Assembly (NCBI GenBank): GCA_030647005.1 | Contig: JAUSKG010000034.1 | Location: forward strand, 4,050-68,049 | Length of the DNA stretch: 64,000 nucleotides | Source: a bacterium | Lineage (GTDB): Bacteria; Patescibacteriota; Patescibacteriia; JACPHY01 | Direction of reading: 5' to 3' | Shown here: positions 8,927 through 63,539 of the stretch, piece after piece | Layout: every line of letters starts with the position of its first letter | How positions within the stretch are numbered: the first letter of the stretch is position 1 | Translations under genes and position numbers: made by a program | Notes under the pieces: model-generated | The model's input: only the letters and a program-made list of their open reading frames with translations | The model's database searches: none | Told to the model about the DNA's origin: nothing

Positions 8927-9020
8927 CACCCCCTCTCGCTCCCCCTCAAGATGAGGGGGGAGGATCAGATAACACCCTTCCGGCTCTCCCCCTCATCTTG
9001 AGGGGAAGTAGGAGGGGGTG
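8927..9020. repeat. inverted pair of a 36-nt dispersed repeat (CACCCCCTCTCGCTCCCCCTCAAGATGAGGGGGAGG); third copy at 56907..56942
   Basis: Copies at 8927..8963 and 8985..9020 (opposite orientation); near-identical copy at 56907..56942. Each has a short internal hairpin CCCTCA-AGA-TGAGGG. Confidence 0.6.
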
Positions 9021-22036: not shown

Positions 22037-22039
22037 CGT

Positions 22040-24675: not shown

Positions 24676-26457
24676 CTAAGGTGCCGCCTCTACCTCGCGC
24701 AGCGGCCCGATGATGCGGTGCGTGATGCGCTCTGCGGGCGTGAAGAGTTCGAGCGGGGGTGCGGGGCCGTCCGCGCCGCGCGCGAGGAGGAACACGCCAT
24801 CGCGCTCCGCAGCAACGCGGAACCCGCCATCCTCGAGAAGACGCGCCAACCGTGCTGGCGCGTCCGCGGCGTAGGGCTTGGTCCAGGAAACGTGGAGGAG
24901 CGCGGTGTACTCCTCCGCCATGTCCGCAATGACTGCGAGGACGTGCGTCGTTTGGGACGGAAGCACATACGGCGCGAACGCGTACTGCTGCTGGCCGAGT
25001 GCAGCGTTCGGGAGGTACGTCGTGCCGCGACGCGCGGCGACGCGCGTGATGACGGACGCGCTCGCGGAGATGACCGCGTTGTCGGGTACTGCGGCGAGGA
25101 GCACATCCGTGGCCTGCGCCTGCACGCGCTGCGTATCCGTTGCACCGAAGACCGCGGCGCGTGCGATGCCTGGGAATGGGCCGAGAAGAAACGCGACGGC
25201 GATATATGCGCTCACGCCAAGCATCATCGCAGCGCGGTGTGGGAGCGGGAACCAGTGTCCGAAGAATGTAGCGACGCGGCCTCCATACCACCCCCCTGTA
25301 TCCCCCCTCTGGAAGAGGGGGGAGCGGAGTGTGGCGAGCACGAGCGCGGGGACAAAGAGGAGCCCGTAGTGCATCTGCACCATGAGGTTGGAGCCGCCGC
25401 TCGCCGTGAGGAGCACCTGGGCCGCCGGCGGCAACGCGAGGAGAAACCACGCGGGCGCGAGGAACGGAAGGAACAAAAACGGAAGAAGAAGCCCGAGTAC
25501 GAAATCGAGATTCGAGAGACGCAGGAGGTGCTGCGCAACGAGCACGGGATGTCCAATGGTGTTCACGATCACCTCACCGAACGACTCGCCGAGCCATCCG
25601 TAGTACACGAGGAACGGGTACGCGCCCGCCGGACTATGTACTGCCGCGATGCGCGTTGCGATGGAGAACCACGCGATGCCCAGGAGGAGAGGTAAGAGCA
25701 TCCAGTACCACTTCTTGCTGTCATTGCGAGGAGTCCGCGACGCGGCAATCCCGGTCATAGGGGTTACGCAACGGTCACGCGCATTGGCCGAGATTGCCAC
25801 GCCTCGCGGACTTGGCTCGCAATGACAGAGGCGTGAGGAGAAGGAGGAAAATCGTAAAACAATCGCCACCACCCCAAACATCATCGCGATGAGCGCGATG
25901 TCCTCCCGTACGAACAGCGCGAGTATGAGAAACAGGATGAACGGCAAGAAGCGACGTTGCAGGAAAAAGTACCCCGCACTCAAAAGGAGAACGGGCGCGA
26001 ACGCGAGCGCGTGGAACTCGAAGAGTGCGGCGTTCCAAAACAGCGGATTCCCGAGCCAGAGCGCGGTGAGGAGCAGTGACCATCGTGACCGACGGAGCAA
26101 CGCGTACACTGGCACCGCAGTGAGTCCGAGCACGAGTGCCTGCACGATGACGAGGAGCCGCGCATCCGACCACACCCGGAAGATCGGTATGAGCAAGAGT
26201 AGCACGGGCTCCACGTGATCACCGAGGTAGCTGTGCTGCTGGATGTCCGACCACCACCCATTGCCGGCCGCGAGGTTCGCGAGCACGTTCGTGTAGATCG
26301 CGAGGTCGAGCCCGTTGTAGAGCAGGTACCGATACTTGAAGAAACCCACCGCGCTCACCGCGAGCGTGAAGAGCGCGATCATGCCCGCGAGCGCGAGGCG
26401 GCGCAACGTGATGGTCATCCATGGAGCATCTGCATCATGTTGATGAGGTTGTGTCAT
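24676..26457 (-). CDS. DUF2079-like polytopic membrane protein with in-frame palindromic-element insertion
   Basis: 593 aa, N-terminal half multi-TM. The internal segment CHCEPSPRGVAISANARDRCVTPMTGIAASRTPRNDSKK is encoded by repeat copy 25720..25826. Confidence 0.5.
   Translation of the reverse strand: MTQPHQHDADAPWMTITLRRLALAGMIALFTLAVSAVGFFKYRYLLYNGLDLAIYTNVLANLAAGNGWWSDIQQHSYLGDHVEPVLLLLIPIFRVWSDARLLVIVQALVLGLTAVPVYALLRRSRWSLLLTALWLGNPLFWNAALFEFHALAFAPVLLLSAGYFFLQRRFLPFILFLILALFVREDIALIAMMFGVVAIVLRFSSFSSRLCHCEPSPRGVAISANARDRCVTPMTGIAASRTPRNDSKKWYWMLLPLLLGIAWFSIATRIAAVHSPAGAYPFLVYYGWLGESFGEVIVNTIGHPVLVAQHLLRLSNLDFVLGLLLPFLFLPFLAPAWFLLALPPAAQVLLTASGGSNLMVQMHYGLLFVPALVLATLRSPLFQRGDTGGWYGGRVATFFGHWFPLPHRAAMMLGVSAYIAVAFLLGPFPGIARAAVFGATDTQRVQAQATDVLLAAVPDNAVISASASVITRVAARRGTTYLPNAALGQQQYAFAPYVLPSQTTHVLAVIADMAEEYTALLHVSWTKPYAADAPARLARLLEDGGFRVAAERDGVFLLARGADGPAPPLELFTPAERITHRIIGPLREVEAAP
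25720..25826. repeat. MITE-like palindromic element copy B, inserted in frame in the DUF2079-like gene
   Basis: GTCATTGCGAGGAGTCCGCGACGCGGCAATCCCGGTCAT ... ATTGGCCGAGATTGCCACGCCTCGCGGACTTGGCTCGCAATGAC. Confidence 0.85.
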
Positions 26458-26499: not shown

Positions 26500-26508
26500 T
26501 ACGGTGCT

Positions 26509-26625
26509 GTCATTGCGAGGAACGAGTCAGCGAGAGACGCGGCAATCCTGGTCGTGCAGGGTACCCGACTTTCACCTTGTACTGGTATAACCGGGATTGC
26601 CGCGTCGCCGACTCCTCGCAATGAC
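26509..26625. repeat. MITE-like palindromic element copy C (intergenic, full length with core)
   Basis: Termini GTCATTGCGAGG...CTCGCAATGAC. The core GTACAAGGTGAAAGTCGGGTACCCTGCAC is present in reverse orientation. Confidence 0.85.
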
Positions 26626-26709
26626 AGAAGTGTGGTTGTGGTGCAGAGTCCATTTTACTGTTAACTGAGCATTAATCTTGATATTCTCCATCAAACTGTC
26701 AAACCCTAT

Positions 26710-27945: not shown

Positions 27946-28338
27946 CTATCCACTCGTTGCTGTTCTCACGCGACTCAAAACGAACGCTGAGATTGCAAAA
28001 GCGGCGAGCGTGACTACCAACCCAATGAGTGCGCGACTGAAGGTCTCCTTCGCCTTGGTCACTTTGGTCTCTTCGCTCCCTGCGGTCATCCAGAGGAATC
28101 CGCCATACACCACGAGTCCAAAGAAGATAATACTAACGAGCTGGAGCAACCCGTTGACGATCCGTGTGACAAGGATGATAGGCGAGGAGGGATCGGTAAT
28201 GTATCCGGCACCAAGACCGATCTGCTGACGCTGTTCCTTGATATCGTCTTTAAGGGATGCCACCGCGATAGAGGGAAGAACCGCAAACACCGCGCACCAC
28301 ACGAAGATGTTCGCGCAGACCGTCCGTATCATCCGCAT
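27946..28338 (-). CDS. TrbC/VirB2-like (T4SS-type) pilin-family small membrane protein, paralog 1 of 7
   Basis: Signal peptide, then a TM helix with the conserved motif VVYGGFLWMTAGSEETKVTKAKE, then a second TM helix. Confidence 0.65.
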   Translation of the reverse strand: MRMIRTVCANIFVWCAVFAVLPSIAVASLKDDIKEQRQQIGLGAGYITDPSSPIILVTRIVNGLLQLVSIIFFGLVVYGGFLWMTAGSEETKVTKAKETFSRALIGLVVTLAAFAISAFVLSRVRTATSG

Positions 28339-28390
28339 TCCCAGATGTGTGTGCTGTGGTGCGTGCATACGTCAGGAGGTTGCTGCAGCA

Positions 28391-28777
28391 CTACACCACG
28401 CCAGACGCAGCGACAAGACGGTCAATGATGAAGAAGGAGAGCGACCATGCGGCGAGTACGATTGCCAAACCAATAATGGAGCGGCGAATCGTCTCCTTTG
28501 CCTTCTCAACCTGCGGTGCCTCTCCGCGCGCGGTCATCCAGAGGAAACCCGCGTAGACCATTTGCACGAAAAAAATGACACCAAGCAATGAGATGGCGGC
28601 CATGACGATCTGGCCAATGAATACCGCCAGGGAAAACTTGTCCGTGATCACGCCTCCCCACCCAGCTTCCGCTCCTACGTCTTGCAGGCGTTCCAGTATC
28701 GAACCAGCATACACACGCACGGGCACCATACCGAACATCACCAGTGCAAGCAGAAAGTGCCGTAGGTGTTTCCGCAT
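28391..28777 (-). CDS. TrbC/VirB2-like pilin-family small membrane protein, paralog 2
   Basis: Motif MVYAGFLWMTARGEAPQVEKAKE. Start at the internal MRKHLRHF. Confidence 0.65.
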   Translation of the reverse strand: MRKHLRHFLLALVMFGMVPVRVYAGSILERLQDVGAEAGWGGVITDKFSLAVFIGQIVMAAISLLGVIFFVQMVYAGFLWMTARGEAPQVEKAKETIRRSIIGLAIVLAAWSLSFFIIDRLVAASGVV

Positions 28778-28778
28778 A

Positions 28779-29165
28779 CTACGAGATCCCCGAAGCGGCC
28801 TCAATGGCCTGCACGACAAAGTACGCAATCGCATACGCGCCGAGTGTGATTGCAAGTCCGATAATGGCGCTGGTGATGGTCTGCTTCGCCTTCTCGATCT
28901 GCGGGGAATCCCCGCGTGCGGTCATCCAGAGAAATCCGCCGTAGATCATGAGCACAAAGAATATCACGCCTACGAGCGAAAGGCCGGTGAGGATGATATC
29001 CGCGATAACAAAATCAATGTCTGTCTGAGCTCTCCGTGTAACATCGAGTTCTAAAAACTTCTTGAGTGCCTCATCAAACACACCCGCCGCTCGCGCGACG
29101 ACTGGCTGCACGATGAGTACCGCCCCCGTGACGATCCCGATGCCGTAGCGCGTTATGGTGCGCAT
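28779..29165 (-). CDS. TrbC/VirB2-like pilin-family small membrane protein, paralog 3
   Basis: Motif MIYGGFLWMTARGDSPQIEKAKQ. Confidence 0.65.
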   Translation of the reverse strand: MRTITRYGIGIVTGAVLIVQPVVARAAGVFDEALKKFLELDVTRRAQTDIDFVIADIILTGLSLVGVIFFVLMIYGGFLWMTARGDSPQIEKAKQTITSAIIGLAITLGAYAIAYFVVQAIEAASGIS

Positions 29166-29169
29166 ACGC

Positions 29170-29625
29170 TCACGCAAAAATGCTCAGTACGAACGCCGTT
29201 GCGGCGAAGGCGAGGCCGATGATGATGATGCCGATGATGGCGGCCTTAATGATGTCCTGGGCCTTCTTCACCTGGTCGGGCGCGCCCTGGGCGGTCATCC
29301 AGCGGATACCGGCGTAGATCATGAGGATGAGGAACGCGACGCCGACGAGCGAGAGTACGTTGTAGATGACAGCACCAACGATGACCTCGAGCGGACGCGC
29401 TTCACCGAGCACCGCCTTTGCTGCGCTATCCTTAAGCCCACACTCCGCGAGACAACGCGCGGAAAGCGTTGCGCGAGCTGCTTCTCCCGCTGCGCCTAGC
29501 TCCGGACAGGTGCACGGTGCTACAGATACAGAAGCTTGAGCGGAGACAGCAGGCGGCAAGAACACCGTCGCGCCAAGCGTGGCGAGGAGTACTGCGGTGG
29601 CGATGGCGGTTGCGCGAACACGCAT
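29170..29625 (-). CDS. TrbC/VirB2-like pilin-family small membrane protein, paralog 4 (Cys-containing N-region)
   Basis: Motif MIYAGIRWMTAQGAPDQVKKAQD. Cys-containing segment CTCPELG...CLAECG. Confidence 0.6.
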   Translation of the reverse strand: MRVRATAIATAVLLATLGATVFLPPAVSAQASVSVAPCTCPELGAAGEAARATLSARCLAECGLKDSAAKAVLGEARPLEVIVGAVIYNVLSLVGVAFLILMIYAGIRWMTAQGAPDQVKKAQDIIKAAIIGIIIIGLAFAATAFVLSIFA

Positions 29626-29650
29626 AGCGGGAACGTTTTTGGAGAGCGAG

Positions 29651-29682
29651 GAACGCGCCCCGATCTTGATCGGGGCGCGTTC
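29651..29682. terminator. perfect palindromic hairpin between pilin paralogs 4 and 5
   Basis: GAACGCGCCCCGATC / GATCGGGGCGCGTTC. There is no clear T-run, so it may be a terminator or a processing site. Confidence 0.3.
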
Positions 29683-29708
29683 CGATCGCGCGATACGAAA
29701 CGGTGATC

Positions 29709-30131
29709 TTAGGTCGTCGCAGTGACGAGGGAGTTGATGACGAACTTGGCGATGGCGAATGCGGAGAGGATGATCGCAAGGCCGATGATGCCGGAGAAGA
29801 TGAGCTGCTTCGCCTTGGTCACCTTGGTCTCTTCACCGCCTGCGGTCATCCAGAGGAATCCGCCCGCGAGGATGATGACAACTGCAACGATGCCCAGGAG
29901 TCCCATGGCGACGTTGATGATCGAGGCAACCGTCGAACGGACATCGCGCGTGCCGAGCTGGATCGTGTTCCCGACCTCATTGATGCCAATGTCAAGTGTG
30001 CCGACGGCACCGACTGCATGCGGCAACATGAGTGCCGTTGCAGCTCCGGCGGCGACCGCAGTGGCGGCAACCTTCCGGAGAGTACTCCGATTGCGCAGTG
30101 ATGCGATGTGCATAGAAGCGATACGTGGCAC
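29709..30131 (-). CDS. TrbC/VirB2-like pilin-family small membrane protein, paralog 5
   Basis: Motif IILAGGFLWMTAGGEETKVTKAKQ. Confidence 0.65.
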   Translation of the reverse strand: MPRIASMHIASLRNRSTLRKVAATAVAAGAATALMLPHAVGAVGTLDIGINEVGNTIQLGTRDVRSTVASIINVAMGLLGIVAVVIILAGGFLWMTAGGEETKVTKAKQLIFSGIIGLAIILSAFAIAKFVINSLVTATT

Positions 30132-30639: not shown

Positions 30640-30734
30640 GTAGCGGAAACCTTTAGGTTTCCATCCGCCTACCCGCGACCAATCCGCCTACAACGAACGG
30701 CCGGATGGAGGCCTGAAGGCCTCCGCTACACCAT
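30640..30734. repeat. structured ~95-nt repeat, copy 1 (two internal hairpins closed by an outer GTAGCGG/CCGCTAC stem); second copy at 55689..55764
   Basis: GTAGCGGAAACC-TTTA-GGTTTCC ... GGAGGCC-TGAA-GGCCTCC-GCTACACCA. The second copy carries the compensatory change GGAGGTC/GACCTCC. Confidence 0.5.
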
Positions 30735-30757
30735 ACAGCTCGCACCTGGTATCGGTA

Positions 30758-30804
30758 TGACCGGGATTGCCGCGTCGCTCGCGGACTCGCTCCTCGCAAT
30801 GACA
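30758..30804. repeat. solo right arm of the MITE-like element (copy D)
   Basis: ATGACCGGGATTGCCGCGTCGCTCGCGGACTCGCTCCTCGCAATGAC. Confidence 0.7.
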
Positions 30805-31405: not shown

Positions 31406-31428
31406 CTCGCGGACTCGGTCGAAATGAC
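31406..31428. repeat. solo terminus of the TCATTTCGAG-subfamily palindromic element
   Basis: CTCGCGGACTCGGTCGAAATGAC. Confidence 0.45.
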
Positions 31429-32911: not shown

Positions 32912-32920
32912 ACTAAGTGT

Positions 32921-33036
32921 GTCATTGCGAGGAGTCCGCGACGTGGCAATCCCGGTCATCGGCGCACCAATCCGACAACAACAGTATACGCATCCTTCCG
33001 GTGATGACCGGGATTGCTTCGTGGACTCGCAATGAC
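32921..33036. repeat. MITE-like palindromic element copy E (variant core)
   Basis: GTCATTGCGAGGAGTCCGCGACGTGGCAATCCCGGTCAT-CGGCGCACCAATCCGACAACAACAG...-ATGACCGGGATTGCTTCGTGGACTCGCAATGAC. Its core resembles copy G. Confidence 0.85.
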
Positions 33037-33062
33037 ATGGTCATGAGGTTTTGCAAAATGGG

Positions 33063-39790: not shown

Positions 39791-40069
39791 GGCATTGCGA
39801 GGGAGTCCACGATTCTCTGTCATTGCGAGGAGTCCGCGACGTGGCAATTCCGGTCATACCAGCACAAAGGTGAAAGCCGGGTGCACTGCATGACCGGGAT
39901 TGCTTCGATCGGGGACTCCTCGCAATGACAGCGATGGAGTGCCATGTTCCTTTCATTGCGAGGAACGAGTCCGCGAGTGACGCGGCAATCCCGGCCATGC
40001 CGTGTACAAGGTGAAAGCCGGGTGCACTGCATGACCGGGATTTCCACGTCGCGGACTCCTCGCAATGAC
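39791..40069. repeat. tandem cluster of MITE-like palindromic elements: partial arm (39791..39817) plus two full copies (39819..39929, 39953..40069)
   Basis: Both full copies have GTCATTGCGAGG...CTCGCAATGAC termini and the core AAGGTGAAAGCCGGGTGCACTGC. They are separated by 23 nt of unique sequence. Confidence 0.85.
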
Positions 40070-40074
40070 AGCGC

Positions 40075-40545
40075 TCACCGAATGCGCAGCGTGGCTTTCA
40101 GCGATTGGAGCCGCGCGTAGAACCCGCTCGTGTGGATGGAATCCAGGCCGAGGCGCACGCTGTCGTAGTGGTGGACCCACTCGTGGAGGAGCGTGTCGAG
40201 GAACGTCTTTGCCGCGAGGAGCTGGCCGCGCACGGCGGTACGATTGGTGATGTATACGTAGCGCGTTGCCGGTTTGTAGTACCCGTACTGCTTGAACACC
40301 GTCCGCCCGCCGCGCTTCTTGTGGTACTGGTGCGCGTCGGATATCGTCACGCGGGCGATGATGTCCATCGCCGCCCCGTCGCACAGCGCGTCGCACAGCT
40401 CTTGTGCGACGCGCTGCCGATGTTCGGTCTCCAGAGGTCCCGTGAGGATCTGCTTCGCGAGTGCGCGCGCCTCCCGTGATGCGCGGAAGTCCACCTCCCG
40501 AATCCGATTGCTCGCCACGTAGTTGCGCTGAGACGCCATACTCAC
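40075..40545 (-). CDS. SprT-like zinc-metalloprotease-domain protein
   Basis: C-terminal region TFLDTLLHEWVHH contains HExxH in a SprT-like context. 156 aa. Confidence 0.45.
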   Translation of the reverse strand: MSMASQRNYVASNRIREVDFRASREARALAKQILTGPLETEHRQRVAQELCDALCDGAAMDIIARVTISDAHQYHKKRGGRTVFKQYGYYKPATRYVYITNRTAVRGQLLAAKTFLDTLLHEWVHHYDSVRLGLDSIHTSGFYARLQSLKATLRIR

Positions 40546-40682
40546 GCGGGCGGGTATAAAACCCGCCCCTACGCCGTTACTTCGGAGGGGAGGAGTTCAT
40601 TCCATCGTCGCGTTATGCGTCTCCGTAGGGGAGGGGTTTACCCCCTCCCATCCGGGCTCCCCCTGAAGCTGGCGCGGGAGCG
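40546..40682 (-). repeat. composite repeat: GCGGGTATAAAACCCGC hairpin + GGGAGGGGGTAAACCCCTCCC hairpin + 26-nt repeat, reverse orientation; overlaps the 3' end of the giant ORF
   Basis: The same ordered pair of hairpins recurs at 60682..60784. The 26-nt element lies at 40661..40682. Confidence 0.5.
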
Positions 40683-43600
40683 TCAAAGAACGCGCGATGT
40701 CGGCCCATGCGGATGGGATGATGGCGGTGATGCCGACTGATTCCGGTGCGTCTGCGACCGCTACGACATCCGTCTCGCGGGCATCGGAGGTTTTGGGGGA
40801 TGACGGCTCCACGATGATCTGCACGGTGTCCGCCGCTGATGCGCCACCGTTGTCCACGACTTCGAGGATGACGGACGTCGTTCCAATCGGCGCGGCGTAC
40901 TCCAGCTGCGCGCCGGAGCCGATGTACTCCCGACCGACGCGCCAGCGCAAGCGCGCGATGGACCCGTCTGCATCACGCGAGCGCGATCCATCGAGGGTGA
41001 CGGTGACCACTCCGTCGCCATCGTCATCGCGCACGGTTTGATCTTCGCCCGCGTGTGCAACCGGCATCGTATTGAGCCCAACCATGCTGCGCCAGGCACT
41101 CAGCACCGCGCGGTTGTTCAGCTCATCGAGCTCCGCGATGGCATCGTTCGGGTCAACGGTGAGCTCGAGGATCGCCGCGCCTTCCGGTGGGGTGGTCGCG
41201 TAGACGCCGAGCGGCCGCGGGAGGCCGACGGTGTCCGGAATCGCGGACGTCATCTGGAACCGCCAGTCCGGTTCGAGGGCATCCTGCGTGCGCAGGTAGT
41301 GCTGCCCAAGCGGCAGCCCGCTCCCACCCCGCCACTGGAGCCGCCAGGTGAACGCGGGACTGATCACACCACCGCGATTCGTGAGGATGATGCGGAGCGC
41401 GCCGCTCTCGTCCACGCTGAGGTCGAGGATGGCAAGATCCACCGGACGATCCGGCTCGAACACCGCGAGCGTCGTGCGGGCCTGTGCCTCCCGCCCGTCG
41501 GCATCGCGTACCTGCACGGTGGCGGCAATGAGCCCGCCGGCATCGAACCGACGCTGGATGGTCGGCGAAGCACCAACGACGCCGTCTGCAAAACGCCAGG
41601 AGACCGTGTACGGCTTGCGACCGCCGGTGATCGCCGCGTGGTAGGTTGCGGAGAGCGGCGCGGGACCGGATGCCGGATCAACCGTCGCCGTCACCGCGAG
41701 CGGCGCGACGCGCACCACCGGCGTGCGCTCCGCGACTGGCGCGATATCCGGTGTGATGACTCCTGCCTCCTTCGGGCTGCTCGGTTCCTCAGGCACATCC
41801 GTCACCAGCTCGGGCTCGTCAACGATGGTCGGCTCGCGTGGAGGCACTGCGGGTTCCGGTATGCGACCCTCGGCCTCCTCGGGAATGGTGATCGTGACGT
41901 CATTGTCGGACTCGTTCACCTCAACAATTGCGTTTGGCCCATCCACGGTGATGAGGAGCTCCACCGCCCCGCTCGGCACGGTGCGCAGGAATTGCGGGAA
42001 GGTCTGCCCCGCGCCGCTCCCACGGTGCGGGAAGAACGTCGCGCCGAGGTCACCTGCGAAGGTAATCGTCTGTGGATCTCCGGGCGCGAACGCTTGCGCG
42101 GGCGCATCGTGCCAGAACCGCACCGCACCTACGGACAGCCCAAGCGTGTCGGTCCAGGTGAACCAGTACGACAACGGTACGCCGATGTCACCGATTGCCG
42201 CGCCATCGTTCACGACCGTGACGGTGACGGCGCGGGCGTCGTCCGCATACGTCGCGGACACGGCGCGAAGGTTGGGGAGCGGCGGCTGCTCCGCCTGCAC
42301 ACTCGCCACCGGAACCGGGAGCGTCGCGACGTTGTTGAGCTCATGCTGCTCGGCAATGCGACCATCACCGTCCGCGACGATGCGCAGGTGTGTGGCGCCC
42401 GCTGGCGGGTGCGCGAGGAATACCGCGAGATTCTCCGTCCGATGTCGCGTGAAGATGAGGAGGAACCGCTCGCGGTAGGTGACGGAGAGTAGGCCGGTCC
42501 CGAGCGACTTCGCATCGCCTGCGGCGAGCGCGTGGAGGGTGAGTGTACGCACCGCACCAAGAGGAACCACACGGTCATCCACCCACGCGAGCTGGAGCGT
42601 GGACGACGGTGCCTCCGCGTCCCCGTCATTGCGCACGACGAACGCGAGCGTACCATCTTCCTCCCACGCTGCGGAGGACAGCAGGAGGTCCGGGAGTGCG
42701 GCCGCACCTACCTGCGTCGCGCCAGTGAGCGCACCGAGTATCGTGCCGACGGTATCCCGCGCGCGCGATGCGATGCGCGTCGCCGTCTCCGCGGGCAGAC
42801 GCGCAATCGTGAGGGTCACCTGTTTGCAGTTGTTCGACTCATCGGACTCCGCGATCTCCTTATTGACATCTATGCACACCTCGAACGCGTGGTTGCCGGA
42901 CGTGGCCTCCCAAGCGTCGGCCCACGTGATGGTTCCTTCCGCCGCCTTCGCGAGCGTCGGGAGTGCCTCCGTGGACGGGAAGGCATCCGGAACACCGTCA
43001 TTGTTCAAATCCACAACCAACCACGCAGTCGTCGCCGCAACATCCGCCGATCCGCTATTCCGGATCGTCGCCGTAAACGACACCGCCTGCCCGGTCATCG
43101 GCACGGCAGGTGACGCAACGACACGCACCATCACGAGGTCCGGCCCGATGGTGACCGGTTCTGGTTCGGGTTCCGGCTCGGGTTCTGGTTCCGGTTCCGG
43201 CTCTGGTGCCACGACCGGGCGCGTGAGCACGCGGGCATTATTCTGCTCGTTGGCTTCTGTCACCGCGTCCTTCGGATCCACCACGATGCGCAACTGCATC
43301 GCGTGCACGGGAGGCGCGGCGATGAAGTTTGCGTAGTATCCGGTCCAACCAATGGTCCCCAGGTCTTTCGCCGCGCCGCGGGAGAGCCCCATGAAGTCCC
43401 GCGTCTCTTCCGCAAGAACGGTGCCATCACGATCGAGCCATGCAATCGTCGCACTCGTACCCACCGTGCGCACGGCACCGTCATTACGCACGACGAGTCG
43501 TAGTCCCGCATCCGTCAGTGCGGCATCGGCAATGGCGAGATCGGCGACCCCGAGCGGCCATCGGTCCGACGTAAGACGATTGTTGTCTTCGCGCTCCTCT

Positions 43601-46600
43601 GCGATCCGGTTGTCCGGGTCCACGATGAGCTCGATACCTGCGGCACCTGTTGGCGGATCGAGCACGTACTCACCAAACGGCCGCGGTGTCCCCGTCCGAT
43701 CACCGACGTCGCTCATCATGGCGTAGAAGCTCCCCGCGCGCTGCGCATCGTGCGGCTGGCGGTACGGTGGTACAGCAATGCGCGCACCGGAGGCGTCCAA
43801 CCACGCGAGCTCCCACGTGTACGCCGGCGCGGGAACTGTTCCCTCCACTTGCATGTTCACGATGAGTCGCTCGTCGTCGGTCACGCTGATGAGATTCGCC
43901 TTGAGATCCGACAGCGGCGCACCGGCAAAGGGAACATCGAAGGTATTGTTCGATTCGTCCGCTTCCGTCAGCTTGCCCGCCGGATCAACCGTAAACCGAA
44001 TCTGCGTTGCACCCGCGGGCGGGTCCTTGAAGAACTGCACCTCGGGGCCGTAGCCGGAGTCCTTGTACGCGAAGAGGAGCTGGTAGCGGTGGAGAAACTG
44101 CTTCTGGAGACCGTCACCGCGACCGATGTACGGCGCGCCAAGGAGCGTACCGGAAGCATCGGCCCACTGCATAGACCAGAAGAACACGGGTGATGCAATC
44201 TCGCCGACGTTGCGGACATCGAGTCCATAGATATCACCGTCGGCATTCGTGAAGAGCTTGGGGACACCGGTGATCGTGAGATCCGGCAGCGCGCTCCGGT
44301 CCGGACGATCGAAGGTCACGCGGTTGTTCTCCTCGTTCTTCTCCGCGATTGCATGATCCGGATCCATCGTCACGCGGAGCGTGCGCGCCGCATCCGGCGG
44401 CGATGCGAGCAGCTCGCCCGCGCGACCCACACCGCGTTCGATGATGATCGAACGGCCACTGCGCGAGGAGAGCTGCGGCCCGTCCACGCGGACCGACGCG
44501 CCCACGACCGTGCCTTCCGCATCGAGCCACGCGAACTCCCACACGAATGCCTGGACGTCCTGCTTCCCCTTGTTCCAGAGCGTCGCCGAGAAGCTGTCCA
44601 TGCCCAGCGCAGGTTCGCCGAACTCGAGATCGGGCTGCTGCACGATGACGAGTGCCGCGCGCGCGGTGTTATTCTGCTCATCGTGCTCGCGGAGCACATG
44701 CTCAGGATCAGCGGTGATCTCCAGCCCGCTCGCGTTCGCTGGCGGATCGGCGAGGAGGCCCGCCAAGGGTGTCTGCTCCTGTGCGAGACCGGTCGCGGTC
44801 CACAGAGGTGACGTGAGCGTGGTGGTTGCTGCGGTGAACGTCCGCGATGCACCAGATGCGAGCGCGGCGGTGTCCAACCAGTACCGACCGTACGAACCGG
44901 CAAAGTGCACTGCGATGCGGATGCGTCCCTCACGATCTCCGGCGGGCGCGTCGCCGACATTCGTCACCGTGAACGTCGCGCCGTCGCGCGTGACGGCAAC
45001 GTCGCGCACAACGAGGTCTGCGAGTTTCCGTCGCGCAGCAACGTCCGCGCTGTTGTTCTCCTCCGAGGACTCCGCGATGGCATTGCCCGCATCAATCGTC
45101 ACGCGGAGTGCCGCAGCCCCCGTCGGCGACAACGCGAGCGAGCGCTCATCGTACCCGTACCCGTCGTAGCGCAAGGTGCGAACTTCGGTGGCCCCGGGGC
45201 TGAGGAAGCCCGTCCCGCGGGTGACGGTCGGCGTGCCGAGTACCCCGCCGGCGGCATCCACCCACTGGAGCGTGAGCGTGGCGGGCGTGGCGCGCGCTGC
45301 ACCACGATTTGCGATGGTGATACGGAACGTGTCGCCGCTCGCCTCGATGCCGGTTGCTGCGGCAACGAGCTGGAGGTCCGGCAGCGGGAGCGGCAGGGTG
45401 ACGATGTTGTGCTCCTCATCCCGCTCGGGAATTGCATCCGTCACATCTGCCGTGATGCGGAGTGCGGTTGCGGTGCTCGGTCGCTGCTGGAGGAACTGCG
45501 CGAGCGATTGGCTCGATGGTTGGGGACGATGATTGGCGTAGGCGAAGGAGAGCATCGTATCGGCCGCGCTCATGCGCGCGGATGTTCCAGGTGCAATGGG
45601 GAGCATCGTGAGGACGCGCTCGCCGCCGGGAATGGGAGTGCCGCTGCCGTCCAGCCAGAGGAGGCCGACGGAGACATCACCGCCCGTGATGCCCGGCCCA
45701 TCGTTCACCACCGCGAACGTGAGCGATGCATCCACGAGGTGCGCGTCCGCAATGCGGAGATCGGCGCGCGGACGTTCGAGGAGCACCGCGTTGTTCCCGT
45801 CGTTCGTCTCGCGAATCACATGGTCCGGATCGAGCGTGAGGTGGAGGTGCGTCGCATCGCGCGGTGGCATCCGGAGCACCTCGGTGAGGGCGATCGTCGA
45901 GACCTGCGTGCGACCCCACCACCCGCCCCGGAACTCGTACGACACCTGCACATCACGCGCATGGAGTGTGATGCGTCCACCCGCGACGATCGGCGCGAGG
46001 TCCACGAAGTAGCGCTGGCCCGTCGCCTGCCGATCTGCCGTGCGCCACACGATGTCCGCGCGCACGCGCGCGCCATCCGTTGCGCCTGCGCCGTCATTCT
46101 GCACGGTGAAGACGAGATCGTCCGCGGTGAGCGATGCACCCACGATGGTGAGGTCTGCGAGTGCGGATGGTTGCGGCGGGGGCGGCGGGAGCGCGGGTGC
46201 GTCGAGCACCGCGATGTTGTTCAACTCATCGGACTCGTCGAGCGTCCCTGCGCTGTCGAGTGCGACCCGAAGGAATGCCGCGCCATCCGGTCGGTCGGTG
46301 AGGAACGCGGCGAGCGACTGTGTCTCCATGCTCCGGAGCAGACCGCTCCGGTAGGATACCGTGGACGTTGCCGAAGAGATGCCGGTCGTCGCACCGGCAT
46401 CGAGTGCGGGGTACGCGATGGAGCGTGGGGAACCGAGCGGTTGGCGTTCCCCGTCCAACCACTGGAATGCGACGTGGAATGCACTCCCGATGCGCGTCGT
46501 GCCGATGTTGGAGACCCGTGCCGCAAACGCACCGGCATCACCGCCGACAAAACCCGCTTCCGTGATGGCGAGGTCGGGGAGCGGGAGGTGCACGACCGCC

Positions 46601-48618
46601 GCGTTGTCGTCTCGTGTCTCCTCGAGGAGTACCGCACCCGCATCGAGCGCGATGCGAAACTGCGTCGCGCCCGCCGGACGGTTGACGAGGTACGTCGCGA
46701 GCGGTTCATCGTGTGCAGTCGAGAACATGCGACCGGTGGTGTAGGACGCGACGGCGTGCGCGGAGCGTAGGGTGACCCGCTCGAACGGCGCAACGTGTTC
46801 CACCGCAATGGAGCGCGGCGCACCGAGGCGCCCACCCGCAGCGTCGAGCCACTGGAGCTCGATGGCAAACGGCGTCATGATGACGGTCGCGCTGGTGTTG
46901 TGGTACGAAAAGGTGAGCGCGCCATCGGCAATGGTGGGTGCGATGATCTGGAGATTGGGGAGTGCAAACGGGATCGCAAGCGTATTGTTCTCCTCGTTCG
47001 CCTCGGCAATCGCACCTCCTTCGTCAAGGACCATCTGGAGCAGGGTTGCATCCGCCGGACGATCGGCGAGAAACGCGCTCAGCAACAACGGCTCCGCGCG
47101 CTTGAACATGCGCCCACGCGTCCGCTCGACGGTCGTTGTTGCCGCGTCCACAAACGTGGAGGAGCCGGCAGCACTGCCGACGCGCACCATCGCAACGGCA
47201 TCCTGCACCGCACCCTCCGCGTTCACCCATTGGAACAGTACTTGGTACGCATCAGCAATCGTACCGCCGACGTTGCGGTACACCATCATCGCACGTTCCG
47301 GCGTGATGTCGTAGGACTCAGCAATGAGATCGGGCTGTGGTTCGGGTTCCGGCTCAGACACATCCTCTGGTGGTGGCGCAATCGGCTCGCCATCCTCAGG
47401 AGGGAGGAGCACGACGTCATCGGGCGTTTCCAAAAGAGGTGGCGACACCACAACCGGCACGTCTTCAGGCGCGGCAACGATCTCCGGCCCGCAGCTGCAA
47501 CAGAACAACCCATCGCTGCCATTGCGCGTCGTGATGGTGTGCAGGGTGCCACACGCCTGCGCACACTGATCGTAGGAGGTAAACTCGTCCGGTTCGCACG
47601 CAACGACGCACGCGTAGCACGTCGCCGCGGTCGTCGCGTCACGAACGCAACGCTCGTTCGCGTCACCGCACATTCCACCACAAGTATCATTGGTGAATCC
47701 CGGGCACGATGGTGCTTGTGGCACTTCCGATGGCGACACCGGAACGGGAGTGACGGTCGGCGTACCGCTTGCCGGACGCAATCGCGCAGCGACCCGTCCA
47801 AAAAAACCACGCGGCGGATCGGGAGCCGGCACGGCAACACCGACGAATGCCGGGGCTGCTGCTTCCACTCCCGGGGCCGCAACCGCATCGGGGACGGATG
47901 GTGCCGGAGCAAAAGCATCCTGTTCTGGCACGCCCGAGACAACAGGGATCGTGCGTTCGAGCACTCGCTCGGGAGCGGGTGTCACCACCGGCACCGCATC
48001 AACTCCACCACTCGATACGCGCGCAGGCGGAGCGAACGGAGCTGGCGTGGAGACGGGGACGGGAACCGGCGCGGGTGGCGCGGTCGCGGTGGGTGCGGAT
48101 TCCGGTTGCGCAAGAGCCGGTGTTGGCACGGATGCGAGACGATCGAGAATCTGTTCGGCGATGACCGAGCGATCCGCATCGCCGCCCTGTTCCGGTGCGG
48201 TGAGCTGCGCCGCGATGGACGTAAACACCCGGGTCTGCTGCGCGAGCTGCGTCGTCACCGCCGCATCAATCGCATCGGCGGTGCCATCCACTCCCGATAC
48301 ATCGGCCTGCTCCTGCGCGAGCTGCACATATCGCTGCGCGATCACCTGCACGACGAGCACACGCTCCGGTGCGCGCTCCGCGATCACCTGCGCCTCCTCC
48401 ACCTTCTCCTGTGCGTAGCGGAGCGCACGCGCGGCCTTCTTCTCCGGATTGATCGTCAGCGCGAGCGCGACGCGCTCGAACGTGAGATCGAAGAAATAAA
48501 AACGGCTCGCCGGCGTGAGGCCGGCAGCCGCGTGTGCTGCGCTCGGGACGAGCAATACGAACGCTGCGATGAACGTCAGCACTGCCTGTCGCGCGCGCAC
48601 GACGGTGAGCTTATCCAT
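40597..48618 (-). CDS. giant surface protein (~2670 aa): DUF5667-like N-terminus, Pro-rich and Cys-rich segments, about 14 CARDB-like repeats, (PE)n linker, PKD-like domains
   Basis: Start MDKLTVVRARQAVLTFIAAFVLLVPSAAHAA (signal/TM) then TINPEKKAARALRYAQEKVEEAQ (DUF5667-like). The Cys cluster is CPGFTNDTCGGMCGDANERC...CYACVVACEPDE. ~110-aa repeats each carry VxNxGxxxA...W.D..G patterns. A PEPEPEPEPEPEPEP linker follows. The PKD-like domain includes TATVDPASGPAPLSATYHAAITGGRKPYTVSWRFADG. The last ~30 codons read through dispersed repeats, so the true stop may be earlier. Confidence 0.75.
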   Translation of the reverse strand: MDKLTVVRARQAVLTFIAAFVLLVPSAAHAAAGLTPASRFYFFDLTFERVALALTINPEKKAARALRYAQEKVEEAQVIAERAPERVLVVQVIAQRYVQLAQEQADVSGVDGTADAIDAAVTTQLAQQTRVFTSIAAQLTAPEQGGDADRSVIAEQILDRLASVPTPALAQPESAPTATAPPAPVPVPVSTPAPFAPPARVSSGGVDAVPVVTPAPERVLERTIPVVSGVPEQDAFAPAPSVPDAVAAPGVEAAAPAFVGVAVPAPDPPRGFFGRVAARLRPASGTPTVTPVPVSPSEVPQAPSCPGFTNDTCGGMCGDANERCVRDATTAATCYACVVACEPDEFTSYDQCAQACGTLHTITTRNGSDGLFCCSCGPEIVAAPEDVPVVVSPPLLETPDDVVLLPPEDGEPIAPPPEDVSEPEPEPQPDLIAESYDITPERAMMVYRNVGGTIADAYQVLFQWVNAEGAVQDAVAMVRVGSAAGSSTFVDAATTTVERTRGRMFKRAEPLLLSAFLADRPADATLLQMVLDEGGAIAEANEENNTLAIPFALPNLQIIAPTIADGALTFSYHNTSATVIMTPFAIELQWLDAAGGRLGAPRSIAVEHVAPFERVTLRSAHAVASYTTGRMFSTAHDEPLATYLVNRPAGATQFRIALDAGAVLLEETRDDNAAVVHLPLPDLAITEAGFVGGDAGAFAARVSNIGTTRIGSAFHVAFQWLDGERQPLGSPRSIAYPALDAGATTGISSATSTVSYRSGLLRSMETQSLAAFLTDRPDGAAFLRVALDSAGTLDESDELNNIAVLDAPALPPPPPQPSALADLTIVGASLTADDLVFTVQNDGAGATDGARVRADIVWRTADRQATGQRYFVDLAPIVAGGRITLHARDVQVSYEFRGGWWGRTQVSTIALTEVLRMPPRDATHLHLTLDPDHVIRETNDGNNAVLLERPRADLRIADAHLVDASLTFAVVNDGPGITGGDVSVGLLWLDGSGTPIPGGERVLTMLPIAPGTSARMSAADTMLSFAYANHRPQPSSQSLAQFLQQRPSTATALRITADVTDAIPERDEEHNIVTLPLPLPDLQLVAAATGIEASGDTFRITIANRGAARATPATLTLQWVDAAGGVLGTPTVTRGTGFLSPGATEVRTLRYDGYGYDERSLALSPTGAAALRVTIDAGNAIAESSEENNSADVAARRKLADLVVRDVAVTRDGATFTVTNVGDAPAGDREGRIRIAVHFAGSYGRYWLDTAALASGASRTFTAATTTLTSPLWTATGLAQEQTPLAGLLADPPANASGLEITADPEHVLREHDEQNNTARAALVIVQQPDLEFGEPALGMDSFSATLWNKGKQDVQAFVWEFAWLDAEGTVVGASVRVDGPQLSSRSGRSIIIERGVGRAGELLASPPDAARTLRVTMDPDHAIAEKNEENNRVTFDRPDRSALPDLTITGVPKLFTNADGDIYGLDVRNVGEIASPVFFWSMQWADASGTLLGAPYIGRGDGLQKQFLHRYQLLFAYKDSGYGPEVQFFKDPPAGATQIRFTVDPAGKLTEADESNNTFDVPFAGAPLSDLKANLISVTDDERLIVNMQVEGTVPAPAYTWELAWLDASGARIAVPPYRQPHDAQRAGSFYAMMSDVGDRTGTPRPFGEYVLDPPTGAAGIELIVDPDNRIAEEREDNNRLTSDRWPLGVADLAIADAALTDAGLRLVVRNDGAVRTVGTSATIAWLDRDGTVLAEETRDFMGLSRGAAKDLGTIGWTGYYANFIAAPPVHAMQLRIVVDPKDAVTEANEQNNARVLTRPVVAPEPEPEPEPEPEPEPEPVTIGPDLVMVRVVASPAVPMTGQAVSFTATIRNSGSADVAATTAWLVVDLNNDGVPDAFPSTEALPTLAKAAEGTITWADAWEATSGNHAFEVCIDVNKEIAESDESNNCKQVTLTIARLPAETATRIASRARDTVGTILGALTGATQVGAAALPDLLLSSAAWEEDGTLAFVVRNDGDAEAPSSTLQLAWVDDRVVPLGAVRTLTLHALAAGDAKSLGTGLLSVTYRERFLLIFTRHRTENLAVFLAHPPAGATHLRIVADGDGRIAEQHELNNVATLPVPVASVQAEQPPLPNLRAVSATYADDARAVTVTVVNDGAAIGDIGVPLSYWFTWTDTLGLSVGAVRFWHDAPAQAFAPGDPQTITFAGDLGATFFPHRGSGAGQTFPQFLRTVPSGAVELLITVDGPNAIVEVNESDNDVTITIPEEAEGRIPEPAVPPREPTIVDEPELVTDVPEEPSSPKEAGVITPDIAPVAERTPVVRVAPLAVTATVDPASGPAPLSATYHAAITGGRKPYTVSWRFADGVVGASPTIQRRFDAGGLIAATVQVRDADGREAQARTTLAVFEPDRPVDLAILDLSVDESGALRIILTNRGGVISPAFTWRLQWRGGSGLPLGQHYLRTQDALEPDWRFQMTSAIPDTVGLPRPLGVYATTPPEGAAILELTVDPNDAIAELDELNNRAVLSAWRSMVGLNTMPVAHAGEDQTVRDDDGDGVVTVTLDGSRSRDADGSIARLRWRVGREYIGSGAQLEYAAPIGTTSVILEVVDNGGASAADTVQIIVEPSSPKTSDARETDVVAVADAPESVGITAIIPSAWADIARSLTLPRQLQGEPGWEGVNPSPTETHNATME

Positions 48619-48637
48619 AGCGTATTTTTCATCTCCA

Positions 48638-49468
48638 TCATAGCACACGCGAGAGAAGAGCGGCGATAATCGTGAGCATGCCGATGACGATGACGAACAC
48701 GCCGAGGTTCACGCGACGGGTGAACGCCATGAACGCGTGGATCGTCGCAATCCCGAACGCAAACGAGGTGAGGAGGCCCCAGAGCAGCGTCGCATCGAAC
48801 GGTGCGCCGTTGCGGAGCAGCACGAGGTTCCCCGCAAACACGATGGGGATGGACATGAGGAACGACAGGCGGAGCGCCTGCTGCCCATCGAACTTCCGGA
48901 GGAGGAGCGCCATGATCGTGAGGCCGGAGCGCGAGAGCCCGGGGAGCACCGCAAATCCCTGCATGACCCCGAGGAGCACCGTGTCGAACAGCGTGATCCG
49001 TTGACGCGGCACCGCCGCGGCCTGCCGCTTGCGCGCGGACAGGAGCATGGCGCCCGTGGCGATGAGGAACACCCCGATCGCACCCACGATCACCCGAATC
49101 GTCGCCGCGCCGCTCGTGGAGCCAATCACCTGGATCGCGCGGCCAAACCCCTCGAGGAGCACGAGCCCGAGCGCACCGGAGATGAGCGTTGTCCCGATGA
49201 GGAACCAGAGCAGGTCTCGAGACGCGCCTCGCTCCCGACGCGTAATGACACGCCCGAGCTCCCGCAGGAGCTCGCCGACATCCCGCCGGAAGTACACGAT
49301 GGCCGCAACCATCGTCCCAAAGTGGAGCATGAGTGCCACGTCAATGGACTCCCGCACATCCGTGTGGCCAAAGAGCACCGTGCGCGCGAGCACGATCATC
49401 CCGTCCGAGGAGATCGTGATCCACTCCGTCATTCCCTGAATGGCACCGAGCACGAGTGCTTCGAGCAT
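48638..49468 (-). CDS. uppP: undecaprenyl-diphosphate phosphatase (BacA/UppP)
   Basis: GAIQGMTEWITISSDGM and PGLSRSG motifs are present. 276 aa with 8 TM helices. Confidence 0.9.
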   Translation of the reverse strand: MLEALVLGAIQGMTEWITISSDGMIVLARTVLFGHTDVRESIDVALMLHFGTMVAAIVYFRRDVGELLRELGRVITRRERGASRDLLWFLIGTTLISGALGLVLLEGFGRAIQVIGSTSGAATIRVIVGAIGVFLIATGAMLLSARKRQAAAVPRQRITLFDTVLLGVMQGFAVLPGLSRSGLTIMALLLRKFDGQQALRLSFLMSIPIVFAGNLVLLRNGAPFDATLLWGLLTSFAFGIATIHAFMAFTRRVNLGVFVIVIGMLTIIAALLSRVL

Positions 49469-49523
49469 AGGAATTCATCTGTAAGATTCCCTCGCGTTGT
49501 TTTACACGCTGCATCTCCCTCTC

Positions 49524-49675
49524 GTCATTTCGAGCGGAGTGAGCGCGCGGGCGAACGAAGCCGAGAAATCTCACGTTCTATGGGAAAACTTCACACCAGA
49601 GAGATCTCTCCGCTCTCTGTTGCGGAGCCTGCCCTGAGCGAGTCCGCGAGTCGAACGGGGTCGAGATGACGAAAC
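49524..49675. repeat. palindromic element of the TCATTTCGAG subfamily (intergenic, 152 nt)
   Basis: GTCATTTCGAGCGGAGTGAGCG...GAGAAATCTC...GAGATCTCTC...GGTCGAGATGACGAAAC. Its termini are related to the GTCATTGCGAG family. Confidence 0.7.
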
Positions 49676-55563: not shown

Positions 55564-55688
55564 ATCCTTGGCGCTATCGCGCCAGCTTCGGTCACAGGAC
55601 AAGCATAGCGTAGCGCATTGCGTCGCGGGAATCAACTCATGGAGAGACCGTTGAAAAAGTCCGAACATGCACCATCTGCCTGTCCGAT

Positions 55689-55764
55689 GTAGCGGAAACC
55701 TTTAGGTTTCCACGTACAGCGCGAGACGGATGGAGGTCTGAAGACCTCCGCTACACCATTTTTT
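55689..55764. repeat. structured repeat copy 2 (shorter variant, ends in T-run)
   Basis: GTAGCGGAAACC-TTTA-GGTTTCC...GGAGGTC-TGAA-GACCTCC-GCTACACCATTTTTT. Confidence 0.5.
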
Positions 55765-60833: not shown

Positions 60834-60867
60834 GTCATTTCTCGCTAGCGGACTCGCTCGAAATGAC
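60834..60867. repeat. mini palindromic element GTCATTTCTCGCTAGCGGACTCGCTCGAAATGAC
   Basis: Carries only the TCATTTC...GAAATGAC termini around a short core. Confidence 0.5.
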
Positions 60868-61061
60868 AAAGAAAAAAGGTTGGAATCACACAATAGTAAC
60901 GATCTCCATGAGTTCTACGGTTGCATATTTGCTCCGTTGAGCCAAGCACTTGACAATCTGCCAAAAATATGGTCTACTGATTAGTCCCGCTGCACTGCTG
61001 CAGCGTGGTCCGTGCCGGATTGCGGCGCGCTTTCCCAATCGAACAGATAGAGGAGTCCGAG

Positions 61062-63373: not shown

Positions 63374-63386
63374 AAAACAATCCTGT

Positions 63387-63520
63387 GTCATTGCGAACCG
63401 AGTCCGCGAGGTGTGGCAATCCCGGTCATCAGCAGACCCATCCGACAACAACGGCACGCGCATTCGTCCTGTGATGACCGGGATTGCCGCGTCGCTCGCG
63501 GACTCACTCCTCGCAATGAC
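63387..63520. repeat. MITE-like palindromic element copy G (variant core, as copy E)
   Basis: GTCATTGCGAACCGAGTCCGCGAGGTGTGGCAATCCCGGTCAT-CAGCAGACCCATCCGACAACAACGG...-ATGACCGGGATTGCCGCGTCGCTCGCGGACTCACTCCTCGCAATGAC. Confidence 0.85.
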
Positions 63521-63539
63521 AGAAGCAAGAGGATTCGCT

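Follow-up and report, generated by a model that had tools for sequence, protein, structure and literature searches.

Palindromic repeats in a Patescibacteriota genome segment are probably head-out pairs of tagged hairpin units of the CGTC-REP and Ssn-related motif kind

A stretch of 64,000 nt from a Patescibacteriota genome (GenBank assembly GCA_030647005.1, contig JAUSKG010000034.1, positions 4,050 to 68,049; hereafter the window, in which all coordinates are counted) carries a dense family of short palindromic repeats, whose closest described relatives fall into two groups. The first consists of repetitive extragenic palindromes (REPs) with a CGTC tag, CGTC-1 to CGTC-4, which include dRS3 of Neisseria and RPE-4 and RPE-6 of Rickettsia (Di Nocera, De Gregorio & Rocco 2013, BMC Genomics 14:522, PMC3733652). 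These REPs have a CGTC or TGTC tag (variant CCTC), a stem starting with A-T and a CCA tail, and mostly form head-to-head dimers that can fold into one large stem-loop; some copies lie in frame within genes, no dedicated or adjacent transposase gene is known for them and five phyla were reported to contain them (PMC3733652). Back-translation of the published peptides gives CGTC-ATTCCTGC-GAAA-GCAGGAAT-CCA for CGTC-1 and CGTC-ATTGCCGGG-CTTGA-CCCGGCAAT-CCA for CGTC-3. Rickettsia palindromic elements (RPEs) are ~100-150 nt long and lie in frame within functional genes, where they add a peptide in a tolerant region (Ogata et al. 2000, as described in PMC3733652).

The second group comprises the Ssn-related motifs (SRMs), including the Neisseria Transformation Sequence (NTS) CGTCATTCCCGCGMAVGCGGGAATCYRG, which contains dRS3 (Chenal et al. 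2025, Nat Commun 16:2388, PMC11893778). SsnA, a single-domain GIY-YIG nuclease of 94-95 aa, binds the NTS hairpin only as single-stranded DNA (ssDNA); its cut falls a few nucleotides upstream of the hairpin. Cleavage is controlled by the trinucleotide GTC that precedes the palindrome, and binding by the C that follows it; SsnA cleaves neither the reverse strand nor duplex DNA or RNA, and does not bind RNA. The gene arrangement in Neisseria is NTS-ssnA-NTS, and the system limits transformation. At least one SRM lies near 71% of Ssn homologues, with SRMs on both sides in 42%, and 81% of the genomes with more than 200 SRMs encode an Ssn homologue. Mobility of the Ssn/SRM system was put forward as a hypothesis only (all PMC11893778).

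The repeats of the window are probably inverted head-out pairs of tagged hairpin units with the CGTC-REP/SRM architecture, and non-coding derivatives of unit-ssn-unit modules served by Ssn in trans. Their kind is already known (CGTC-tagged REP or SRM); they are not a lineage-specific MITE (miniature transposable element with inverted repeats). What appears to be new is a split-stem unit of a GAG type that is missed by the SRM pattern, an extra inner module, a host from the Candidate Phyla Radiation (CPR) and in-frame copies in three envelope-biogenesis genes.

The presence of a dense family of short palindromic repeats, noticed in a first-pass annotation made from the sequence alone, was confirmed. 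Exact matches to the terminus GTCATTKCGAG number 17 in the window; dinucleotide-preserving shuffles predict 0.16, and none of 100 reaches 17. The window contains eight full inverted dimers, one composite copy and several units that are solitary or variant, which together account for 1,415 nt (2.2%); the element ends are GTCATTGCGAG. In region 39791-40069, a degenerate partial head precedes two palindromic copies in tandem. The full copies are near-perfect hairpins (-62 to -80 kcal/mol, z-scores -7 to -11). A profile hidden Markov model trained solely on arms from other phyla recovered 16 units of full length (E <= 3e-4) in the window, as well as one further unit at E = 0.26 (63386-63422) and four partial heads. 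A subfamily with T at position 7 pairs as heterodimers with a third type, GTCATCTCGAG, at 49523-49672 and 58326-58446; in variants with T or C at stem position 4, all four stem segments change together.

Several other statements of the first-pass annotation held as well. Each position where it placed a copy does hold a copy or a fragment, although its list lacks a 191-nt copy at 15239-15431, directly 3' of tRNA-His. The related T-type subfamily exists, and the suggested potential for strong hairpins or cruciforms was upheld. The window had been described as free of transposase genes, which agrees with a non-exhaustive test (20 open reading frames (ORFs) against Pfam; tblastn for Ssn-like genes, best E = 1.6); the view of the repeats as probably non-autonomous, non-coding elements was upheld, no mobilising-enzyme gene being found in the window by these tests. 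A search of Rfam at gathering thresholds returned three tRNAs only in the window and nothing on the repeats; matches to plant and animal microRNA hairpins, obtained at permissive E-values and far under threshold, were rejected as spurious.

The anatomy of the unit was derived from about 130 cross-phylum copies, and the arm statistics from 210 unique arms of other phyla. The unit consists of an unpaired tag (C/T)GTC, a stem-loop ATTGC-GAG-(variable inner hairpin)-CG(A/T/C)(A/G)-GCAAT and a CC tail. The conserved GAG on the 5' side and CG(A/T/C)(A/G) on the 3' side constitute an internal loop of the GA/GAA type, so that the stem is split after 5 bp. The inner hairpin is highly variable in sequence and length, the whole unit ranging from 26 to 87 nt; a candidate Ssn substrate is TGTCATTGCGAGGAGTCCGCGACGTGGCAATCC. 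When the 210 arms were folded with DNA parameters, ATTGC:GCAAT closed the arm hairpin in 67% of the folds and the inner segment beat 95% of shuffles in 45% of the arms, where 5% is expected. The commonest tails are CCA (74 arms), CTC (53) and CCC (25), and the seven commonest all start with C. In the window, the stem starts with A-T, T-A (ATTGC...GCAAT, with the variants ATTTC...GAAAT and ATCTC...GAGAT), and the tails are mostly CC(C). All 16 window units begin with T or C, followed by GTC in 15 and TTC in one; a C directly follows GCAAT in 15 of the 16. Units occur alone, as homodimers and as heterodimers, with the tags always directed outward. Readings of the repeats as one long hairpin, or as an RNA with a conserved four-way junction, were dropped, as units occur singly and with unlike partners.

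The flanks of the element are also regular. Position -1 is a pyrimidine in 94% of the 130 copies (C 56%, T 38%) and position +1 a purine in 96%, and on both strands the flanks are pyrimidine-rich at the 5' side and purine-rich at the 3' side. The flank pair is mostly T...A in the window, whereas across phyla C...G is commoner than T...A. No target-site duplication of 1-8 nt was found above chance among the 130 copies.

The units of the window share with the CGTC REPs a YGTC tag, a stem start of A-T, a C-initial tail (commonest CCA), the dimeric form and in-frame intragenic copies. The likeness to SRMs and the NTS comprises the GTC tag 5' of an A-T, T-A stem start, the C directly 3', inverted pairs, hundreds of copies and, for the unit type in other genomes, the unit-ssn-unit arrangement; both positions that govern SsnA are kept in the window (GTC in 15/16 units, C after the palindrome in 15/16). 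The units differ from the SRMs in having a split stem (5 bp, the GA/GAA loop and the variable inner hairpin) and a weak lone hairpin, and the window differs from SRM systems in its dimers with an extra inner module GGCAATCCCGGTCAT and in containing no ssn gene. The intragenic peptides listed for CGTC REPs include none of the ...RND or CHCE... kind present in the window, and the five phyla reported for those REPs (PMC3733652) contrast with well over 15 for the unit type of the window. The main text of PMC11893778 does not name CPR, cyanobacterial or Bacteroidota hosts. As for RPEs, RPE-4 and RPE-6 are themselves CGTC-tagged and the window has similar palindromic in-frame inserts; the unit sequence, the host phylum and the gene targets differ, and the peptides of the window are predicted from the sequence.

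The dimers of the window are longer than the basic 61-80-nt form found in AT-rich genomes; they carry an added inner palindromic module, GGCAATCCCGGTCAT / ATGACCGGGATTGCC, around a variable core. This module on both arms gave no match in a scan of a metagenome collection. The module ends again in GTCAT...ATGAC, as CCCGGTCAT, core and ATGACCGGG, for example, at 32950-33010 and 63415-63490, and may represent a second pair of heads, nested and degenerate. The core of the window dimers recurs in two variants, ACAAGGTGAAAGCCGGGTGCACTGC and CCAATCCGACAACAAC.

The link of such units to Ssn is seen at locus L138, where a 95-codon GIY-YIG ORF (Pfam PF01541) exactly occupies the spacer of a head-out pair. 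The tail of a CGTC unit is followed by the ATG, and the TGA overlaps the right unit, which is an inverted unit of the window type. Over 89 residues, the encoded protein shares 43% identity with a Neisseria SsnA homologue (E = 1e-29), which is well within the homologue criterion of Chenal et al. 2025. Among the candidates searched, the nuclease family has 4,670 members at E <= 1e-5, and 65-80% identity is retained across Patescibacteria, Nostoc, Melioribacter, Deltaproteobacteria, Bacteroidetes, KSB1 and Poribacteria. N-terminally over-called homologues contain peptides of the unit right before the true methionine, such as SLRAKRSNL and VIASTAKQS... In a set of 19 loci chosen by protein alone (eight obtained by looking up the exact protein, 11 located on plasmids and a viral contig), the nuclease gene has units within 150 nt in all 19 cases and on both sides in 17. 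The unit-ssn-unit layout is also present at the P0104, P0102, Bacteroidetes, Nostoc, KSB1 and other loci. At the P0104 locus, contigs L185, L186 and L194 differ from L189 and L191, which come from other groundwater samples, by one extra tandem left unit; the 38-nt indel is composed of a 28-nt unit and TACTCCTGAT and is a recent gain or loss of a unit.

The type of the flanking unit tracks the host's own CGTC family, as in S. meliloti (ATCCTCGGG), N. aromaticivorans (GCCCCGTG), Sphingobium (ACCCCGGG) and Azospirillum (ATCCCCGC), and likewise in Rhizobium and Aeromonas. Homologues at least 57% identical to the consensus have GAG-type flanks in 10/10 cases, and those at most 51% identical have continuous-stem flanks in 7/8, the sample being small. 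The unit type of the window is presumably cognate to the conserved Ssn clade that it flanks elsewhere. This clade offers enzyme developers candidate ssDNA nucleases with new specificities. On plasmid p3 of Azospirillum lipoferum 4B (255206-256090), sufB and sufC of an otherwise conserved operon are separated by an ssn gene that has a full CGTC-1 dimer at either side. Other scans yielded little: the first scan for GIY-YIG motifs found them at only 2 of 120 repeat loci, clustering of neighbouring ORFs at 120 genome loci gave no recurrent family and a scan of viral contigs with the nuclease alignment found three loci only. The connection between repeat and nuclease established here is an independent recovery of a published result (PMC11893778), not a discovery.

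Several observations weigh against assigning the repeats to this system. No Ssn gene was found in the 64-kb window or 2 kb beyond it (tblastn best E = 1.6). The SRM pattern, HGTCWYN(0-2)YYVSBRHN(0-5)WNVSBRGN(0-2)RNCYNB, has 0 matches in the window, against about 0.9 in shuffles. A lone window unit folds at -3.2 kcal/mol, compared with -8.9 for the Neisseria NTS, and the continuous 8-9-bp stem and 4-5-nt loop of the CGTC REPs are missing from the window units. With respect to mobility, a comparison of filled and empty sites on Methylobacterium plasmids gave no clean junctions at three sites, where age has degraded the copies and the DNA between genes has diverged; one site has a tandem-duplicated block larger than the element. 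In a single case, which carries no weight here, there is a hint that CCGTC is kept at the junction of an allele without the element. The pattern itself matches the NTS control and neither the window unit nor the minimal GAG unit. It seemingly misses a large class of Ssn sites, in which the stem is split by a GA/GAA loop and the inner hairpin can expand, so that censuses using the pattern may undercount Ssn/SRM systems. The class is present in CPR, Cyanobacteria, Bacteroidota, Chloroflexota and others.

Outside the window, both termini at element-like spacing were found in at least 120 genome stretches in a scan of one genome per species, where ~4 are estimated by chance, and these are spread over well over 15 phyla. 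The hosts include Bradyrhizobium and other Alphaproteobacteria, Chloroflexus, Anaerolineae, Dehalococcoidia, Bacteroidota, Ignavibacteriota, Planctomycetota, Legionellales, Helicobacter, Bacillota, Atribacterota, Spirochaetota and a Rickettsia endosymbiont; further CPR hosts are Parcubacteria, Kuenenbacteria, Komeilibacteria and Peregrinibacteria. The family is also present in finished genomes and plasmids. An exact 30-nt arm of the window, GTCATTGCGAGGAGTCCGCGACGYGGCAAT, is found on 53 metagenome contigs with a GC content of 33-65%, many of them from Hainich groundwater, and none is syntenic with the window. The first-pass annotation had proposed a lineage-specific repeat usable as a strain or lineage marker; neither part of this proposal is compatible with such a cross-phylum distribution. 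What was supposed to be a lineage-specific MITE is thus re-filed into a repeat/enzyme system of pan-bacterial extent, an understanding of which dates only from 2025. The occurrence of an identical GC-rich 30-nt unit in genomes of such different composition hints at horizontal spread and bears on whether Ssn systems are mobile. On contigs L174 (TGTCATTCCCGCGAAAGCGGGAATCCAG), L134 and L155, the window-type unit is the dimer partner of a canonical CGTC-1/NTS unit. On high-GC contigs L146, L157, L163, L168, L171, L176, L178 and L184, a short dimer lies inside a larger conserved repeat, ...GGGACCCTGGCGGAGCG..CCTT, dimer, ...GCTCGSYGACAGGACCCG; this larger repeat is a composite element around the window-type unit. 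A literature search on the exact termini returned chance primer matches only.

In a head-out dimer, each strand has a unit in forward orientation at its 5' edge. An Ssn encoded elsewhere in the genome (a cognate enzyme is assumed) would act in trans on the window copies. The units would become accessible as single strands, or as cruciforms once extruded, in the course of replication, repair or DNA uptake, and Ssn would, by analogy with SsnA, nick each strand at the outer boundary of the dimer. Such cutting could serve excision and spread, or the control or processing of incoming or recombining DNA, as in Neisseria. Like Rickettsia RPEs, intragenic copies would persist where two of the three frames are open and a loop can take up 35-45 additional residues. 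The lack of target duplication, the presence of the same unit across GC contents and the 38-nt polymorphism at P0104 are consistent with dynamics and horizontal spread of the units, short of proof. A bolder proposal is that GAG-type units and the Ssn clade constitute a mobile ssDNA element that spreads horizontally, with unit-ssn-unit as the autonomous form and the dimers as the non-autonomous one, where cutting at the tag on each strand releases the dimer and seeds the in-frame insertions in CPR; we regard it as tentative, with the balance somewhat against it. If true, Ssn would count as a transposition enzyme of a new kind, beyond a transformation-limiting nuclease, and would be the 'missing transposase' of the CGTC repeats.

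The alternative that survives best, though an improbable one, is that the repeats are RNA elements selected by the host, such as terminators, mRNA stabilisers or RNase III sites. They would form very stable RNA hairpins, many copies are located in 5' leaders or directly 3' of genes, and REPs are known to affect mRNA stability (PMC3733652). However, a pyrimidine run, the hairpin and a purine run follow each other on both strands, an order opposite to that of a terminator, and the conserved parts are the helix sequence and the unpaired tag and tail rather than loops or junctions. The copies have both orientations, some lie in coding regions, none has an Rfam match above threshold and SsnA does not bind RNA (PMC11893778). 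Secondary effects of the repeats on transcripts may nevertheless exist.

REPIN-like elements replicated by a REP-associated tyrosine transposase (RAYT), that is, by an HUH transposase of the IS200/IS605 type, as with GTAG REPs, would share the geometry, in which two hairpin units bearing a conserved unpaired tag are inverted relative to each other. The resemblance to the REPIN/RAYT system (Bertels & Rainey 2011) extends to the non-autonomous doublet, the enzyme gene between units and the lack of target duplication, which fits single-strand 'peel and paste'; the biology of RAYTs and REPs, including REP effects on mRNA stability, is summarised in PMC3733652. The tag here is (C/T)GTC and not GTAG, and the enzyme is a GIY-YIG nuclease instead of an HUH tyrosine transposase. 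A scan of 173 loci and the window for HUH/Y1 motifs gave two spurious matches and no credible ORF, the clustering of ORFs over the 120 genome loci revealed no recurring neighbour family and no RAYT flanked by CGTC units is reported by Di Nocera 2013 (PMC3733652), the nested gene being Ssn. REPIN/RAYT systems are reported to be inherited mostly vertically, in contrast to the identical 30-nt arm in genomes of 33-65% GC. We consider this origin very unlikely. An IS200/IS605 TnpA or a rolling-circle protein, which the first-pass annotation had suggested as mobiliser, gives way to a minimal GIY-YIG nuclease of the Ssn family as the associated gene.

Scarcely any weight, and slightly less than for REPINs, is left for a classical MITE, in which an insertion sequence has been reduced by deletion and depends for its movement on a DDE transposase that acts in trans and binds the terminal inverted repeats. 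The repeats are short, palindromic, multi-copy, dense and devoid of coding capacity, like MITEs, and the T...A flanks of most window copies give TG...CA ends, as in many DDE elements. Across phyla, however, C...G flanks prevail over T...A, and 130 copies are without a target-site duplication. The arms are tagged hairpin units, also found alone and with different partners, rather than repeats that bind a transposase; no transposase family recurs near the elements at the 120 loci, and the gene found between units encodes a GIY-YIG nuclease. The MITE-like character ascribed to the family at first is therefore not supported. QMITE1 and QMITE2 of Coxiella (PMC5896051) either contain a GTAG REP or are unrelated, and hence do not belong to this family. 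Finally, a fortuitous sharing of an 11-nt motif by unrelated sequences or an assembly artefact, for which nothing speaks except the metagenomic origin of the contig, can be dismissed, given the 17 motif matches against 0.16, the fit of the profile over full-length units, the same sequence in an independent Logan assembly and the copies in other genomes, finished ones and plasmids among them.

This independent evidence comes from Logan contigs L215 and L001, assembled separately from the same organism, which carry the same sequence as the window and end exactly at repeats, at about 8956, 15405 and about 19757. The repeats thus fragment short-read assemblies of the genome. For CPR biology, they represent 2.2% of a compact segment, break assemblies and add 35-45 residues to a glycosyltransferase, a DUF2079 protein and a flippase.

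These three genes, overlooked as hosts in the first-pass annotation, contain copies that are read through in frame and without stops. A head-out dimer at 19728-19842 lies within a GT2 glycosyltransferase gene (19458-20312, plus strand) and encodes the in-frame peptide CHCEPNPRGVAIPVISVQGESRVHCMAGIATSRTPRNDK; the protein has 284 aa, compared with about 240 aa in orthologues, and the insert is located in a variable loop between the conserved motifs AW..A and F.F.DADL. Another head-out dimer, at 25719-25827, was attributed to a gene for a DUF2079 membrane protein (24676-26457, minus strand), with the in-frame peptide CHCEPSPRGVAIS...GIAASRTPRNDS; the PF09852 match is unbroken over the insert (residues 44-556). 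The third copy, a T/C-type dimer with an extra head (58326-58446), is in frame within a Polysacc_synt flippase gene (57135-58673, minus strand). The closest homologues of the GT2 protein are annotated as Candidatus Uhrbacteria, which places the host in the CPR, as the first-pass annotation had guessed; the nearest are just 54-59% identical, and a comparison with them gave no empty site at the nucleotide level. Orthologues P0002, P0013, P0014, P0017 and P0020-P0023 from related CPR contain further inserts, such as PPLP..GGE..SPSP..GEREGV, which are unrelated and lie in this loop or at other places, and P0014 ends in ...GEIASRTRND, which corresponds to an arm of the window's unit type. Judging by these protein sequences, repeat-derived in-frame insertions seem to be common in this CPR lineage. 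In a metagenome-assembled genome of the Gammaproteobacteria (contig L112), GAG-type dimers at 782-889 and 3182-3313 are in frame within an apparent UvrB and an apparent TruB, assigned from conserved motifs by eye; UvrB and TruB are gene classes that recurrently host intragenic REPs (Di Nocera 2013, PMC3733652).

According to a gene map based on GC content at third codon positions (GC3) and Pfam searches, most copies are intergenic and lie from a few to a few tens of nucleotides from gene ends; copies are found in either orientation, and some are within coding regions. The 191-nt composite copy (15239-15431) is flanked by tRNA-His and by a DAO-family oxidoreductase gene, whose 3' end faces it. 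It has outer units CGTCATTGCGAGTCCGCGAAG... and ...CTTCGCGGACTCGCAATGACG and an inner GTCATCTCGAG head at 15272; its arms are 21 nt long and 100% complementary, and the right unit was found by the profile at E = 2e-4. The head-out dimer at 26508-26626 occupies a divergent intergenic region, and its core is inverted relative to that of the copies at 19728 and 39818. Upstream of the likely start codon of a solute-binding-protein gene, at a distance of ~10 nt, there is a head-out dimer at 32920-33037. A head-out dimer of 134 nt (63386-63521) is situated between a bPH_2-domain gene and the ruvB stop codon. The heterodimer at 49523-49672 lies in a divergent intergenic region beside bacA; its left unit is of the CGTC-ATTTC...GAAAT-CTC type and the right one of the ATCTC...GAGAT type.

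The tandem arrangement starts with the partial degenerate head GGCATTGCGAGGGAGTCCACG... at 39791-39813 on the plus strand (profile E = 0.5). The first tandem copy, a head-out dimer at 39818-39930, folds at -77 kcal/mol (z = -11.4). In the second, a head-out dimer at 39952-40070, one head is mutated to TTCATT, and the copy ends ~5 nt from the stop of ORF 40075-40545 (minus strand). An ORF of 2,683 aa with coding-like GC3 (40597-48648, minus strand) directly adjoins the tandem copies. The solo copies, all on the minus strand, are a unit TGTCATTGCGAGGAGCGAGTCCGCGAGCGACGCGGCAATCC at 30764-30804, 18 nt 3' of the stop of a type IV secretion system (T4SS) pilin gene (profile E = 2e-7), a T-type head fragment GTCATTTCGACC... 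at 31406-31428, between the solute-binding-protein and pilin genes, and a T-type unit TGTCATTTCGAGCGAGTCCGC... at 60834-60868 (profile E = 0.05).

Three parts of the window (6000-8000, 22000-24000 and 28000-30000) have a GC content of 55-58%, compared with about 64%, and may be acquired DNA. Most long ORFs tested there have no Pfam match, except for a GT2/methyltransferase ORF at 22040-23335.

Other short repeat families adjoin the CGTC-type units in a mosaic arrangement resembling bacterial interspersed mosaic elements (BIMEs), at 55688-55755, 30710-30740, 8927-9020, about 56910, 26483 and 60687. They include GTAG-headed, REP-like hairpins GTAGCGGAGG..., present as the reverse complement at 30720 and 55745, the palindrome CCCCTCATCTTGAGGGG at 8989 and 56910, and GGGGTAAACCCC at 26483 and 60687.

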